A stretch of DNA of 64,000 nt from the IMG/VR virus record IMGVR_UViG_3300032401_000690, positions 64,001 through 128,000 of that record, one strand, 5' to 3'. This DNA is from a virus. A model generated the notes under the pieces. It ran no database searches. It worked only from the letters and a program-made list of their open reading frames with translations, and was not told the origin of the DNA. Below are positions 9,611-44,024 of the stretch, piece after piece. A program made the translations under genes and the position numbers. Each line of letters begins with the position of its first letter. Position 1 is the first letter of the stretch.

Positions 9611-9664
9611 AGTGTTGGTTTTTATTATAAATATCCAACTAAATAAAAACTATTTATTTATGGG

Positions 9665-9753
9665 TTAAATTATAGGTTTCCTCCGACTGTTATTTTTATA
9701 TCATACGAGACACAACTGGTGGGTGTCCCCCCAAATTATAGGTATCTTCCAAC
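9665..9753 (-). CRISPR. CRISPR-like mini-array 3 (1 diverged 36-bp repeat, 1 spacer, 1 truncated repeat)
   Basis: Repeat 9718-9753, 30-bp spacer 9688-9717, degenerate partial repeat 9665-9687. Confidence 0.6.
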
Positions 9754-10007
9754 CATATACTGAGTATATCCCTTGTTTGTGAGTCATCTAACCCAAAAAT
9801 GTTTTTAAAAAACGACCAAAGTCTTTCTCTATTTATAAACACAAACCCATTTTTAATATTATGACGATAGAAAAATAACGGTCTTAGGTCTCTATCAACA
9901 TAAAATGTTTTATCACCTTTAACCTCCGGAGTTAAATCACCAAACTCTTTGTGTAACCACTTAAACACCAATCTGTCCCTACTACTTTCAGTTATTATTA
10001 TTTTCAT
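9696..10007 (-). CDS. Domain X protein copy 3 (unknown function); C-terminus encoded by repeat plus spacer
   Basis: Paralog of 10286..10624 and of the C-terminal domain of 10636..12129. Ends WLEDTYNLGGHPP-VVSRMI. Confidence 0.8.
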   Translation of the reverse strand: MKIIITESSRDRLVFKWLHKEFGDLTPEVKGDKTFYVDRDLRPLFFYRHNIKNGFVFINRERLWSFFKNIFGLDDSQTRDILSIWLEDTYNLGGHPPVVSRMI

Positions 10008-10014
10008 ATCATTT

Positions 10015-10370
10015 TAAATTATAGGTCTCTTCCAACCTTAGGTACGCTTGATTTGAATGGAAGAAACCATGTGTGAGTCCCCTCAAATTATAGGTCTCTT
10101 CCAACTTTTACTATTAATAAAAACATCCTATTCTGGGTGTGAGTCCCCTCAAATTATAGGTCTCCTCCAACTACGCCAAGCTTTGCAAAGGAGACCAAGT
10201 AGGTGTGAATCCCCTTAAATTATAGGTCTCCTCCAACTATAGAGAGAAAAGTAGAATAGCCCAAGTTGGTGTGAATCCCCTTAAATTATAGGTCTCCTCC
10301 AACGGAATTGGAAATGTAAAGGGTTGCCCAAGTTGGTGTGAATCCCCTTAAATTATAGGTCTCCTCCAAC
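10015..10370 (-). CRISPR. CRISPR-like mini-array 2 (5 full 36-bp repeats, 5 spacers of 30-33 bp, 1 truncated repeat)
   Basis: Repeats at 10335-10370, 10268-10303, 10202-10237, 10136-10171, 10070-10105, partial 10015-10036. Spacers 31, 30, 30, 30, 33 bp, all different. Minus-strand consensus GTTGGARGAGACCTATAATTTRAGGGGAYTCACACC. Confidence 0.75.
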
Positions 10371-10624
10371 CATATAGTCAGAATCTCCTTTGTTTGCAAG
10401 TAACTCAGACCAAAAATAGAATCAAAAAATACCCAAATTCTGTCGTAATTTATATAAACATCCCTATTTTTTGAATCCTGGTAATACACAAATAACGGTT
10501 TTCGGTCCTCATCAACATAATATGTTTTATCATCTTTAACCACCGGAGTTAGATCACCAAACTCTTTGTGTAACCACTTAAACACCAATCTGTCCCTACT
10601 ACTTTCAGTTATTATTATTTTCAT
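10286..10624 (-). CDS. Domain X protein copy 2 (unknown function); C-terminus encoded by repeat plus spacer
   Basis: MKIIITESS...WLEETYNLRGFTP-TWATLYISNS-VGGDL. Paralog of the neighbouring genes. Confidence 0.8.
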   Translation of the reverse strand: MKIIITESSRDRLVFKWLHKEFGDLTPVVKDDKTYYVDEDRKPLFVYYQDSKNRDVYINYDRIWVFFDSIFGLSYLQTKEILTIWLEETYNLRGFTPTWATLYISNSVGGDL

Positions 10625-10631
10625 ATCATTT

Positions 10632-10786
10632 TAAATTATAGGTCTCTTCCAACCAATTTACAGAAACTTGACGGTATATAATTGGGTGTGAGTCCCCTCA
10701 AATTATAGGTCTCTTCCAACGGGATTTGCATAATCACCTGCCCATGCACTGGTGTGAGTCCCCTCAAATTATAGGTCTCTTCCAAC
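10632..10786 (-). CRISPR. CRISPR-like mini-array 1 (2 full repeats, 2 spacers, 1 truncated repeat), translated as the end of the SOD fusion gene
   Basis: Identical repeats 10751-10786 and 10685-10720. Spacers 10721-10750 (30 bp) and 10654-10684 (31 bp). Partial repeat 10632-10653. Confidence 0.7.
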
Positions 10787-12129
10787 CATACCTTCAGAAT
10801 CTCCTGTGTTTGCGGGCGTTTCAGACCAAAAATAGAATCAAAAAATACCCAAATTCTGTCGTAATCTACATAAATAAACCCATTTTTTTCATCCTGGTAA
10901 TACACAAATAACGGTTTTCTGTTCTCATCAACATAAAAGGTTTTATCACGTTTAACTACGGGTGTTAGATTTCCAAACTCTTTGTTTAACCACTTTAATG
11001 CGGATTTAAATTTAGGATCAACCGATTCGTTAATTGATTCTTTTTTACTTGTTCTCAAGTCATAAAGACTAGTAACGAATTCCCAATTAATATGGTTCCA
11101 AAATTTATTAATATATTGGTCTCGTTTATTTTTATATCTTAAATAATATGCGTGTTCCCAAAGATCTAATCCAAGGATTGGATATCCACCATTAACATCA
11201 TTCATTAATGGGTTATCTTGGTTTGGTGTTGTAATAATTTTTAATCTATTAGTTTTTGTTAAAACCAACCATACCCAACCTGAACCAAAACTATCCAAGG
11301 CGGCCTTATTAAATTCTTCTTTAAAATTTTTAAATGATTTGTATTGGTTTGTTATTTTATCTAAAAGATCCCCTTTTAAAGTTTGTTTTTTTGGGGTTAA
11401 CATTTTCCAAAACAATGCGTGATTAAATGCACCACCGGCATTATTTCTGACCTTTGTATTAAATTTAGTGATAGTTTTAATGATGTCCTCAAGTTCTATA
11501 TCACCTTTTCTACTTGATAATGCATCATTTAATTTTTTAACATAACCTTTATAATGTTTGTTATAATGAACATCCATTGTTTCAGGATCAACAAATTGTT
11601 TTAATGCCGAATATGAATAGGGTAATTTCTCAATACCAATTTTTTTCATTTCGGTAATGAATTCTTTTTGAATGTTAATTTTGTCTGTTAATACGATTTG
11701 TTCTGTTAAGATATCAATTCTATTTGAAATGGGTTTTAACCCCTCATAAACAATATTAACCATTTCGGGGTGTTCTTTTTCAAACATTTTAATTAATCGT
11801 CCAGCACCAGCATTTGCTTCATCCTCATTTTTTCCACCAATATCTTGACCAATTTCCCGTTTTAATATGGTCATTTGATGTTCGTGAATCCATTCGTGTG
11901 CAAGAGTTCTTAAGATATCTCGGTTCAACCGACCTTTAGTTAAAATTTTAATACCAAACTCATCACTTCTACTACCAGTCGTCATTTGACCTGTGCGATC
12001 ACCCAAGAAAGAAACTAATATATCATTCTTTAATGGATATTTTTCATTTAAAAACTTAATAAATTTTTTGGCAAGATCCTTACTTTCTTGGGACATTGAG
12101 CATTTAATATGTTTAATAGATACTTTCAT
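10636..12129 (-). CDS. sod: Three-domain fusion: HExxH metallopeptidase-like domain + Fe/Mn superoxide dismutase + domain X
   Basis: TLAHEWIH...NEDEAN, then SOD motifs LPYSYSAL, HYNKHY, NHALFW, FGSGW, NQDNP, DLWEHAYY, then KWLNKEFGNLTP...WLEETYNLRGLTP. Confidence 0.85.
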   Translation of the reverse strand: MKVSIKHIKCSMSQESKDLAKKFIKFLNEKYPLKNDILVSFLGDRTGQMTTGSRSDEFGIKILTKGRLNRDILRTLAHEWIHEHQMTILKREIGQDIGGKNEDEANAGAGRLIKMFEKEHPEMVNIVYEGLKPISNRIDILTEQIVLTDKINIQKEFITEMKKIGIEKLPYSYSALKQFVDPETMDVHYNKHYKGYVKKLNDALSSRKGDIELEDIIKTITKFNTKVRNNAGGAFNHALFWKMLTPKKQTLKGDLLDKITNQYKSFKNFKEEFNKAALDSFGSGWVWLVLTKTNRLKIITTPNQDNPLMNDVNGGYPILGLDLWEHAYYLRYKNKRDQYINKFWNHINWEFVTSLYDLRTSKKESINESVDPKFKSALKWLNKEFGNLTPVVKRDKTFYVDENRKPLFVYYQDEKNGFIYVDYDRIWVFFDSIFGLKRPQTQEILKVWLEETYNLRGLTPVHGQVIMQIPLEETYNLRGLTPNYIPSSFCKLVGRDL

Positions 12130-42558: not shown

Positions 42559-43578
42559 ATGACCAAAACACTTATTGTTGATGGTAACAACTTATTAAAA
42601 ATTGGATTTCACGGAGTTAAGGATTTCTATAATGATGGGGAACACATTGGTGGGACTTGGCATTTCCTTAACACAATCCGTAAATTTTTAGAGGAAACTA
42701 ACTTTAACAAAGTTATGGTTTTTTGGGATAGTGATACAAACTCAACCCAAAGAAAATTAATATACCCCAAATATAAGATGAATCGTAAATCTTCTCCTGA
42801 TAATATGGAGAAGACAGATTCATTTAACAAACAAAAAACAAGAGTTAAACAATATCTTGAAGAGATGTTTATAAGACAATTGGAGGTTGAAAATTCGGAA
42901 GCGGATGATCTTATTGCCTATTACTGTCAGATCTCTTTAGATGAGGTTAAAACGATATTCTCGTCCGACAAAGACTTAACTCAATTAATATCAGAAACGG
43001 TAACAATATATTCCCCCAACCTAAAGGCATATTATAAGTTTGGTGATAACATTAAGTTCAAAGACTGTTTAATTCCCCATTATAATGTTAAAACATTTAA
43101 GATTGTTGCTGGTGATACATCAGACAACATTGATGGTATTAGTTTAATGGGTGAGAAAACTTTAGTTAAATTATTTCCTGAAATACTTGATTCGGAAATA
43201 AGTTTTACAGATATTTTAACAAGAGGTAAGAAATTATTGGAAGAACAAGGTAAAAGTGTTGTTTTAAATAATCTAATAAGTGGAAAAACGAAGGAGGGTA
43301 TTCTTGGGGAAAAGTTCTACGAAATAAACAAGATATTGGTTGATTTATCTGAACCACTTATAAGTGAAGAGGGTAAGGAGATGGTTAAACAATATTATTC
43401 AGAAAGTTTAGATCCTGATGGAAGGGGTTATAGAAACTTAATGAAGATGATGATGTCGGACGGATTTTTTAAGTATTTACCAAAACGTGATGACGCTTGG
43501 GTTGGATTTATAAAACCATTTTTAAAATTAACAAGAAAAGAAAAAACAATTTACAAAAACAAAAAAACAAATTTATGA
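42559..43578 (+). CDS. 5'-3' exonuclease / flap endonuclease (T4 RNase H-like)
   Basis: LIVDGNN, YKMNR, EADDLIA, SSDKDL, GDTSDNIDG. Confidence 0.9.
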   Translation: MTKTLIVDGNNLLKIGFHGVKDFYNDGEHIGGTWHFLNTIRKFLEETNFNKVMVFWDSDTNSTQRKLIYPKYKMNRKSSPDNMEKTDSFNKQKTRVKQYLEEMFIRQLEVENSEADDLIAYYCQISLDEVKTIFSSDKDLTQLISETVTIYSPNLKAYYKFGDNIKFKDCLIPHYNVKTFKIVAGDTSDNIDGISLMGEKTLVKLFPEILDSEISFTDILTRGKKLLEEQGKSVVLNNLISGKTKEGILGEKFYEINKILVDLSEPLISEEGKEMVKQYYSESLDPDGRGYRNLMKMMMSDGFFKYLPKRDDAWVGFIKPFLKLTRKEKTIYKNKKTNL

Positions 43579-44024
43579 GAGATCAAGATTTTACAAAAGT
43601 GGAATTCCTTTTAAAGTGTAATGAGAACATCGTTGTTCAAAGATTCTTTAATGTTAGGGGTTTTAATCCTGAATCAAAAAATTCATTAGATGTTTATAAC
43701 TATATTGGAGACTTATGTCGTCAATTGACTTATAATATGAAGATGAGAACTGTTGTCTATATGATGGACAACCAATATGAAATTCAGGAAAATCCTGACA
43801 TCTTAAACACATCAAATACGGATGGTGAAGAGAACTTTAATTTAATAATTAGGGTTGGGGATATGACAATTTGTCATAGAGTGTTTGATGCAAAAGTGTA
43901 CCCACCAAAGGTAAGATACACCGTAGACCTACGTCCGCAACTAAAAGGTATACTATCTGACTTGACTGACATTTTTTCAGGCAAAAATTTTAATACGGAA
44001 TATGGCGGATTTAGTTTAGTTTGA
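43575..44024 (+). CDS. Hypothetical protein
   Basis: Start reassigned to ATG 43575, which overlaps the upstream stop (ATGA). Confidence 0.65.
   Translation: MRDQDFTKVEFLLKCNENIVVQRFFNVRGFNPESKNSLDVYNYIGDLCRQLTYNMKMRTVVYMMDNQYEIQENPDILNTSNTDGEENFNLIIRVGDMTICHRVFDAKVYPPKVRYTVDLRPQLKGILSDLTDIFSGKNFNTEYGGFSLV

Follow-up and report, generated by a model that had tools for sequence, protein, structure and literature searches.

CRISPR-type arrays with type VI-B-like repeats embedded in the 3' ends of small giant-phage genes: a possible decoy of host Cas13b

The arrays described here lie on a 144-kb contig (49% complete) of a giant phage from sediment or freshwater. The window, the whole stretch of DNA analysed (64,000 nucleotides), is a part of this contig. 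The phage is T4-like and encodes SprB-repeat proteins, features that hint at a host in the Bacteroidota, probably Flavobacteriales-like. Three tandem units, each composed of a gene carrying a small domain (hereafter X) and an array, occupy the minus strand of positions 9666-10786. Their components and the gene carrying the first X copy are as follows.

10636-12129, minus strand: 497-aa ORF in which an HExxH-like motif lies in the N-terminal region, residues 167-353 form a Fe/Mn superoxide dismutase and about residues 376-466 make up domain X copy 1; the ORF continues through array 1.
10632-10786, minus strand: array 1, with full repeats 10751-10786 (the first, closing X copy 1 in frame) and 10685-10720, spacers 10721-10750 and 10654-10684, and truncated repeat 10632-10653.
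10286-10624, minus strand: ORF of domain X copy 2, 112 aa; a predicted helix (residues 75-90) closes the fold and its last residues are encoded by the first repeat.
10015-10370, minus strand: array 2, with full repeats 10335-10370, 10268-10303, 10202-10237, 10136-10171 and 10070-10105, five spacers and truncated repeat 10015-10036.
9696-10007, minus strand: ORF of domain X copy 3, 103 aa.
9666-9753, minus strand: array 3, with degenerate repeat 9718-9753 (4 mismatches), 30-nt spacer 9688-9717 and truncated repeat 9666-9687.

The window thus holds eight 36-nt full repeats, three 22-nt truncated repeats and eight mutually unrelated spacers (30 and 31 nt in array 1; 31, 30, 30, 30 and 33 nt in array 2; 30 nt in array 3), and its re-examination returned the same coordinates and counts as an earlier reading made from the sequence alone. 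All three gene-plus-array units listed by this sequence-only reading are present, but it overlooked a fourth at the contig end, 70 kb away on the plus strand (contig positions 143,790-144,147), where the contig stops within the third repeat of the unit. It likewise passed over the protein-coding character of the first repeat, the polarity of array growth and the signal of a translation frame in the spacers. The ORFs in the window terminate inside the first or second repeat-spacer unit. In array 2 the three repeats nearest the gene match the first exactly, while the two distal ones represent an older variant. The single spacer of array 3 is conserved in many relatives. Spacer 10721-10750 does have the 50% G+C that had been read as a sign of GC-rich spacers; this enrichment is not general, since the mean over 59 family spacers is 33% compared to 31.7% for the genome. 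Megablast of 25 kb of the window against a phage collection gave no match.

In each of the four units the first repeat constitutes the in-frame 3' end of the domain X of about 86 aa. It is read as the last 12 codons and is followed by a variable tail. All of the arrays examined (41/41) begin where an X domain ends and in its reading frame, in line with the strict one-gene-one-array link that had been proposed. A 21-mer of the same repeat occurs with a 66-nt period in 26 other IMG/VR loci. Both observations place the association of gene and array far beyond chance. Half of the spacers disrupt the reading frame, for which reason an interpretation of the 66-nt period as a protein repeat was discarded. 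Domain X is predicted to adopt an alpha/beta fold of 86 aa in which the end of the helix spanning residues 75-90 (pLDDT about 90) is encoded by the first repeat. All homologs share one terminal motif, after which the tail is hypervariable, and X is often a C-terminal appendage of unrelated enzymes. As to whether X homologs elsewhere are accompanied by arrays, the 41 arrays are all located at X ends; most of the distant paralogs carry only a single gene-embedded repeat, arrays being sporadic among them. The whole cluster is absent from the corresponding site of a complete relative, G006. Domain X belongs to no family of Pfam or PHROGs and has no match in the PDB, either by sequence or by fold (best Z 4.2; Foldseek E above 0.1), while its matches in BFVD and the ESM Atlas are uncharacterised phage proteins only. 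The sequence-only reading did not recognise the architecture as one already described; similarly, a small phage gene whose last 12 codons form the first VI-B-like repeat, with no cas gene, was not found in the literature searched. To our knowledge, no other CRISPR-type array has an expressed, protein-coding leader and first repeat.

The phage repeat is identical at 27-28 of 36 positions to the repeats of Flavobacterium columnare CRISPR-2 and F. branchiophilum CRISPR-5 to -7 (taken from PMC5395568), a score reached by none of 2000 shuffles. The F. columnare locus is of type VI-B (PMC8092290), and the likeness to Cas13b repeats named in the sequence-only reading holds against these real repeats. 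There is no likeness to the II-C and V-A repeats of the same bacteria. The geometry also corresponds: VI-B arrays have a 36-nt repeat, a 30-nt spacer and a 66-nt period (10.1101/092577), as do the phage arrays, whose family includes 116 unique spacers, 28-33 nt long apart from one of 39, with a mode of 30. The leader-to-GTTG orientation is likewise that of VI-B arrays. The window repeats, however, end in CACC and not CAAC (two distant variants do end in CAAC), and are predicted to form a weak hairpin (-3 to -7 kcal/mol compared to -11 to -12 for real VI-B repeats), which renders binding by Cas13b uncertain. Nor is there a leader-repeat hairpin: 12.0 bases of the first repeat pair with the upstream 80 nt, versus 12.1 with shuffled upstream sequence (n=52). 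A match to the Rfam family CRISPR-DR8 (22 bits against a cut-off of 39, opposite strand) was rejected.

PADLOC found no cas gene in the window, as had been stated for these 64 kb, or in the 144-kb contig (G000), where it returned no Cas effector or Cas1 and its Cas-labelled matches are only weak and generic. One of these is a WYL domain, located in an ORF of 143 aa well away from the arrays; a Cas12u3 match (E = 4e-4) was not reproduced. Cas13b and Cas13d family searches of this contig gave no match, nor did Cas1, Cas13a, Cas13b and Cas13d searches of the relatives G001, G006 (100% complete), G007 (89%, with an array) and G008 (100%). The Cas13b family NF038190, absent from the control genomes and so searched without a positive control, matched nothing in G000 or these four relatives. 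On the other half of G006, PADLOC results are dominated by methyltransferase families and are uninformative on Cas. [quoted passage not shown]

Strict and loose patterns of the phage repeat identified no array in 185,579 GTDB species representatives; arrays are often missing from metagenome-assembled genomes. With the loose pattern, the only matches were 3 single ones, as expected by chance. No cognate host array is therefore known. Spacer matches in phages, to be sought according to the sequence-only reading, did not appear either. None was obtained in 50,697 phage genomes or in the PLSDB plasmids, or in an exact scan of IMG/VR with two spacers. By local BLAST, first 59 and later 116 spacers were compared with the contig, three relatives of 100-158 kb, a complete 304-kb relative and all loci; no protospacer was revealed in these sequences, which include 1.3 Mb of related phages.

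The first repeat is constrained at the nucleotide level. Among 105 different first repeats, the choice of synonymous codons is fixed against genome usage: TTG (96% vs 16% in the genome), AGG (98% vs 12%), ACC (65% vs 12%), GAG (76% vs 26%) and ACA (94% vs 49%). Codon 8 nearly always has G as its third base, be the encoded residue Arg, Lys, Glu or Gly, the four commonest. Since codon choice preserves the repeat nucleotides in all these variants while third positions upstream of the first repeat are saturated, the pattern implies that selection acts on the repeat look-alike itself. A GG core is found in 55 of 57 first repeats with arrays compared to 21 of 38 solitary ones; arrays thus occur where the look-alike is intact. 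Two traits by which an RNA anti-CRISPR is recognised are observed here, a repeat look-alike in a phage without cas genes and its conservation at the nucleotide level.

Over 6.1 kb, three phages from separate metagenomes share 99.9% identity, and they differ by a single 67-bp unit of repeat plus spacer beside the gene; for this one event gain and loss are not separable. Repeats further from the gene show more mismatches to the first repeat. Unit gain or loss is therefore polar and occurs at the gene-proximal end. The fragmented contigs of four sediment runs include one extra repeat-flanked spacer, in run X1. Among public sequencing runs, none of RNA is listed as containing the stretch. Arrays of relatives reach 8 repeats. 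Half of the units end in the 22-nt truncated repeat and some arrays in a complete one. With loci picked for open arrays left out, stop codons in the frame of the X ORF are present in 26 of 99 spacers, whereas 47.7 are expected from shuffles (0/3000 shuffles as low); in the other two frames 36 and 44 of the 99 contain a stop. This depletion points to selection on translation. The spacers at the first position, always translated, show it less strongly (stops in 19/56) than later ones (7/43). Spacer lengths are multiples of 3 in 50 of 99 cases and their scatter is above that of host VI-B arrays.

We tentatively propose, with a probability of roughly 0.4, that the gene end mimics a host Cas13b repeat, that host Cas1-Cas2 extends it in trans and that the resulting RNA occupies host Cas13b. 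The 3' end of the X gene would be a phage-borne look-alike of a host type VI-B (Cas13b) repeat, with the X coding sequence in the position of the leader. In the infected host, a member of the Bacteroidota and probably Flavobacteriales-like, a spacer integrase, presumably that of the host, would take the gene end for the end of an array, insert about 30 nt of DNA beside the gene and duplicate the repeat, so that the X gene would stay intact while the array extends outwards from it. The phage would keep the look-alike under nucleotide-level selection. The transcript of X and its array could then be bound by host Cas13b as a surplus, non-protective crRNA-like RNA, diluting the host's own guides and acting as an RNA decoy from which the phage may benefit. 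In F. columnare, type II-C Cas1-Cas2 fills the cas1-less VI-B array in trans (10.1101/092577; PMC8092290; PMC5395568). Moreover, an extra non-protective crRNA produced from the first repeat sequesters Cas13b and lowers phage defence (PMC13187072), and the phage "leader" shows no hairpin that would block such a first-repeat RNA. Besides the missing cognate array and the weak hairpin with its CACC end, two points weaken the decoy proposal. A pure decoy needs no spacers, yet the spacers are depleted of in-frame stops, and the 22-nt truncated repeat could not complete a spacer-then-repeat crRNA. A broader scheme is conceivable but rather doubtful, in which a bacterial CRISPR spacer integrase writes about 30 nt of foreign DNA into the repeat-mimicking end of a phage gene and the product has a dual use, as self-renewing decoy crRNAs and as new protein tails, across a large jumbo phage family.

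The depletion of in-frame stops makes rewriting of the protein tail the main rival to the decoy, although we regard it as somewhat unlikely. Spacer capture would here modify the C-terminus of X, each 30-nt insert adding about 10 new residues after the last helix, for example to escape a host sensor or protease. That the first repeat encodes part of the predicted folded domain, and that homologs share an end motif and then diverge into hypervariable tails, would fit this explanation. Only about half of the spacers preserve the frame, however, and the window ORFs stop within one or two units. It is also the always-translated first spacers that are the less depleted of stops, and avoidance of untranslated RNA, with its transcriptional polarity, in an operon of tandem units could produce the same bias. 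Domain X has in addition no assigned function. The arrays might instead be near-neutral, functionless scars left by off-target integration by host Cas1-Cas2 at an X end resembling the host repeat by chance. Their sporadic distribution, the many distant paralogs with a gene-embedded repeat only, the lack of the cluster in G006 and the loss of units by recombination between repeats, as the single event in the 99.9%-identical phages may represent, are compatible with such a by-product. Codon choice that retains the repeat nucleotides across 105 variants next to saturated third positions argues against it, as do four units in one genome and the long arrays of relatives, and this origin appears unlikely.

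The sequence-only reading supposed that phage guide RNAs hijack or decoy a host Cas effector, a choice on which we can only infer. In the case of hijacking, working crRNAs would turn host Cas13b against the transcripts of rival phages or of the host itself, as proposed for virus-borne mini-arrays. The spacers are indeed diverse and turn over, and arrays ending in a complete repeat imply that full spacer-then-repeat units exist; but the spacer searches described above gave no match, and the collateral RNase activity of Cas13b would also halt the resident lytic phage, which leaves hijacking quite improbable. An autonomous phage system, with an unrecognised effector using the array RNAs, seems the least probable of all. 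The contig is only 49% complete and X is strictly linked to arrays, so that the effector could be X or be encoded in the half of the genome that is not sequenced. Complete and near-complete relatives nevertheless have no Cas1 or Cas13 match, and the largest ORF in the half of G006 outside the coverage of this contig is 812 aa. Domain X is very small, shows neither a nuclease fold nor a known RNA-binding fold and is often appended to unrelated enzymes. The earlier suggestion that it might be a compact RNA-guided effector is unsupported, considering an 86-aa domain without a known fold whose distant paralogs mostly carry a single repeat.

These arrays would represent the first case of the RNA-targeting VI-B type carried by a phage, and hundreds of gene variants conserve the arrangement of a protein-coding leader and first repeat. 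Should the RNA occupy Cas13b, it would constitute a new kind of type VI anti-CRISPR. If the integrase is that of the host, CRISPR adaptation would act on the genome of an infecting lytic phage and be inherited. If the tails matter, they would reveal a new route to protein diversification. Each of these readings is testable in F. columnare, an organism with working laboratory systems for VI-B and II-C adaptation.

The VI-B arrays of Flavobacteriales (F. columnare CRISPR-2) and the phage arrays share a 36-nt repeat, 30-nt spacers and about 75% repeat identity, including a GTTGG start, a U-rich middle followed by a G-rich run and an ACA-N-C end. They also share leader-side addition of units, the same orientation and a lack of cas1 and cas2 genes adjoining the array. 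Unlike the VI-B arrays, those of the phage are carried by a lytic jumbo phage without cas13b and have a protein-coding leader and first repeat; their repeats have a CACC 3' end, a weaker hairpin and no leader-repeat hairpin, and their spacer lengths scatter more.

Mini-CRISPR arrays of viruses and the Cas-less arrays of huge phages, reportedly described by Medvedeva and by Faure in 2019 and by Al-Shayeb in 2020, are, like the present ones, short viral arrays without cas genes that are presumed to use host Cas proteins. They are intergenic, with repeats near-identical to those of a known host array and spacers directed against related viruses. In contrast to them, the present phage array is fused to a gene, and searches found no host array or target. 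RNA anti-CRISPRs (Racrs) arise from solitary repeat units. The viral Cracr arrays treated in one preprint are of types V-A, I-B, I-C, I-E and I-F and not of type VI or from Bacteroidota (bioRxiv 10.1101/2024.10.29.618823). Both correspond to phage repeat look-alikes, sometimes stacked in arrays, that compete for Cas proteins, as proposed here. Unlike the X arrays, Cracrs are not described as embedded in coding sequence or as growing by polar spacer gain (10.1101/2024.10.29.618823). Finally, host arrays suppress the Cas13b-occupying RNA of their first repeat by a leader-repeat hairpin (PMC13187072). The phage units show no such hairpin but share the layout of this RNA, a non-spacer sequence preceding the first repeat, as in the transcript that joins X to its first repeat.

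Domain X occurs only four times in the phage contig, and all four copies carry an array. The sequence-only reading had described three tandem units with eight 36-nt repeats, three truncated 22-nt repeats and eight unrelated 30-33-nt spacers, all of which are present at 9666-10786 (minus strand). The units and their surroundings are:

10636-12129, minus strand: ORF of 497 aa, with X copy 1 as C-terminal module of a protein with Fe/Mn superoxide dismutase
10632-10786, minus strand: array 1
10015-10370, minus strand: array 2
9666-9753, minus strand: array 3
contig 143,790-144,147, opposite strand to the window units: fourth unit, same layout; the contig end falls inside its third repeat

The three proximal repeats of array 2 are identical to the first repeat and the two distal ones represent another variant. 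Many units close with a 22-nt truncated repeat that directly abuts the start codon of the next X. At 10193-10334 (array 2), the three consecutive spacers following repeats 1-3 begin with the same 7-9 nt (A/T-ACTTGG-G/T-C) and diverge completely beyond. These common starts are unexpected if spacers are independent and may stem from related targets having been sampled at homologous sites, or from a repeat duplication that was imprecise. A contig from the public sediment-metagenome run X1, compared with window 10334-10653, carries an extra 29-nt spacer between repeats, absent from the window; other array variants therefore exist in the population.

In each unit the first repeat lies in frame at the ORF end, where it completes a Trp codon by its final base and then adds 12 codons (Leu-Glu-Glu-Thr-Tyr-Asn-Leu followed by Arg-Gly-x-Thr-Pro). 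Both other reading frames of the repeat are interrupted by stops, so that a 30-nt spacer results in read-through into the next repeat, and spacers of 29, 31 or 32 nt terminate the protein after a few codons of that repeat. Three parts are fused in the 497-aa ORF: 150 N-terminal residues with an HExxH-like motif, the Fe/Mn superoxide dismutase and domain X. Among relatives, X is also attached to other proteins (450-590 aa). At L019:3651-5900 (minus strand), in one relative, the truncated terminal repeat is in frame with the next X domain, giving ORFs of 452 and 591 aa with several X domains linked via array remnants. The confident AlphaFold model of X (pLDDT 84, from 54 sequences) predicts a small alpha/beta domain. 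Residues 75-90 form its last helix, the end of which is encoded by the repeat. Its fold showed no resemblance to solved structures (best Z 4.2), and its matches in BFVD and the ESM Atlas are exclusively uncharacterised phage proteins.

The arrays are of CRISPR type according to four lines of evidence: geometry, homology, nucleotide-level constraint and dynamics. Type VI-B arrays have the same repeat length, spacer mode and period. The resemblance to Cas13b repeats that the sequence-only reading had proposed held on alignment of the window repeat and the commonest variant: 27-28 positions are identical, with two one-base gaps, to F. columnare CRISPR-2 and F. branchiophilum CRISPR-5 to -7 (sequences from PMC5395568; the F. 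columnare locus is classed as VI-B in PMC8092290). None of 2000 shuffles reached the VI-B alignment score, and II-C and V-A repeats of the same bacteria scored at shuffle level against the phage repeat.

In a set of 105 distinct first repeats the choice among synonymous codons is fixed, contrary to the phage's own usage, and third positions just upstream are near saturation.

Codon usage in first repeats and in the genome
TTG (Leu, codon 1): first repeats 96%, genome 16%
GAG (Glu, codon 3): first repeats 76%, genome 26%
ACC (Thr, codon 4): first repeats 65%, genome 12%
AGG (Arg, codon 8): first repeats 98%, genome 12%
ACA (Thr, codon 11): first repeats 94%, genome 49%

Codon 8 nearly always has G in third position, for Arg, Lys, Glu and Gly (its four commonest residues) alike. 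Binomial p-values of this bias are inflated because the variants are mutually related; its direction is uniform. The core is kept far better in array-bearing first repeats than in solitary ones, with GG at positions 25-26 in 55 of 57 and 21 of 38, respectively.

The arrays are also dynamic. Three contigs of different metagenomic origin share 99.9% identity over 6.1 kb; what separates them is exactly one 67-bp repeat + spacer unit adjoining the gene. Loci with a common downstream flank have wholly different spacers. In arrays with at least three repeats, mismatch to the first repeat increases along the array, being 0.4 for the second repeat and 1.4 for the third. In the complete relative G006 (304 kb), 35 bp at 204,900-204,935 replace the whole X-array cluster (window 9634-11075), which is therefore accessory. 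In three other relatives (G001-G003) a deletion between repeats has removed X copies 2 and 3, and the cluster is an indel hot spot.

The first 21 nt of the repeat recur at a 66-nt period in 26 more IMG/VR loci, and all 41 arrays examined begin with a repeat that forms the end of an X domain in frame, including those where X is fused to larger proteins. A word-based search identified 163 X homologs (60-94% identity), all with the same terminal motif and a hypervariable tail; a profile search gave 822 clusters at 50% identity. Among distant members the repeat has variants of its own that change together with the protein C-terminus, but its 36-nt length, G-rich core and ACA-N-C end are retained, as is the 66-nt period. 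Where distant jumbo phages have 13-16 X paralogs, arrays are few and most copies have the gene-embedded repeat alone. Of the 196 X domains in all DNA fetched, which is redundant, a first repeat can be recognised in 189, and 133 have one or more further copies downstream.

The window covers 64,001-128,000 of the contig (144,147 bp, IMG/VR virus, CheckV completeness 49%), in which Pfam matches to Gp23 capsid, Gp20 portal, prohead protease and family B DNA polymerase identify a T4-like phage. Its complete relatives measure 296-304 kb, making it a jumbo phage. It encodes SprB-repeat proteins (Pfam), a trait of Bacteroidota. The stretch is present in public sediment, freshwater-sediment, wetland and soil metagenome runs. 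Outside the window, about 30 kb from the arrays, a 143-aa ORF (contig 43,499-43,786, minus strand) matches WYL-domain models (E about 1e-7); WYL proteins are found alongside some CRISPR and other defence systems. In L071:6600-10900, part of a jumbo-phage contig of 262,770 bp, tRNA gene clusters come after an X-array unit.

An autonomous phage system is the least probable explanation. PADLOC scans of 111 ORFs spanning 144 kb found no Cas effector. Family searches, in which none of the 14 control genomes provided a positive control for Cas13, found no Cas1, Cas13a, Cas13b or Cas13d in the relatives G001, G006 (100% complete), G007 (89%, with array) and G008 (100%), and no Cas13b or Cas13d in the phage contig. 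G006 is syntenic with the contig, and the largest ORF in its part beyond the contig does not exceed 812 aa. Spacers matched nothing in any set searched, and working guides against competitors or the host are quite improbable. The repeat architecture was not found in GTDB species representatives with a strict or loose pattern.

Diversification of the protein tail is an unlikely explanation, though less so. In-frame stops (continuing the X ORF) occur in 26 of 99 unique spacers, loci picked for open arrays being left out, against 47.7 expected from shuffles (0 of 3000 as low); the other two frames have stops in 36 and 44. This depletion is real and stronger in later than in first spacers, and the frame is broken by half of the spacers. 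The depletion could also correspond to avoidance of untranslated RNA in tandem operons. That the arrays are a near-neutral off-target scar is rather improbable.

In the best-supported account, the X gene end would be kept as a look-alike of a host Cas13b repeat and lengthened in trans by a host integrase; in F. columnare, II-C Cas1-Cas2 can serve a VI-B array that lacks cas1 (PMC8092290). The likeliest benefit, tentatively, may be that of an RNA decoy, because surplus first-repeat crRNA sequesters Cas13b and weakens defence (PMC13187072).

Cas-less arrays in phages and anti-CRISPR RNAs based on repeats are already known. The viral Cracr arrays described in bioRxiv 10.1101/2024.10.29.618823 are of types V-A and I, and the literature searched contained neither a VI-B-type phage array nor an array fused to coding sequence. 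Compared with VI-B arrays, the CACC end of the window repeats breaks one terminal-stem pair and their predicted hairpin is weak. In host VI-B arrays a leader-repeat hairpin blocks the first repeat (PMC13187072), whereas none was found in the phage units. Spacer lengths are more scattered than in host arrays and, unlike canonical VI-B arrays, many phage units end in the 22-nt truncated repeat. The orientation, from leader to GTTG-first repeat, is that of VI-B arrays (PMC8092290).
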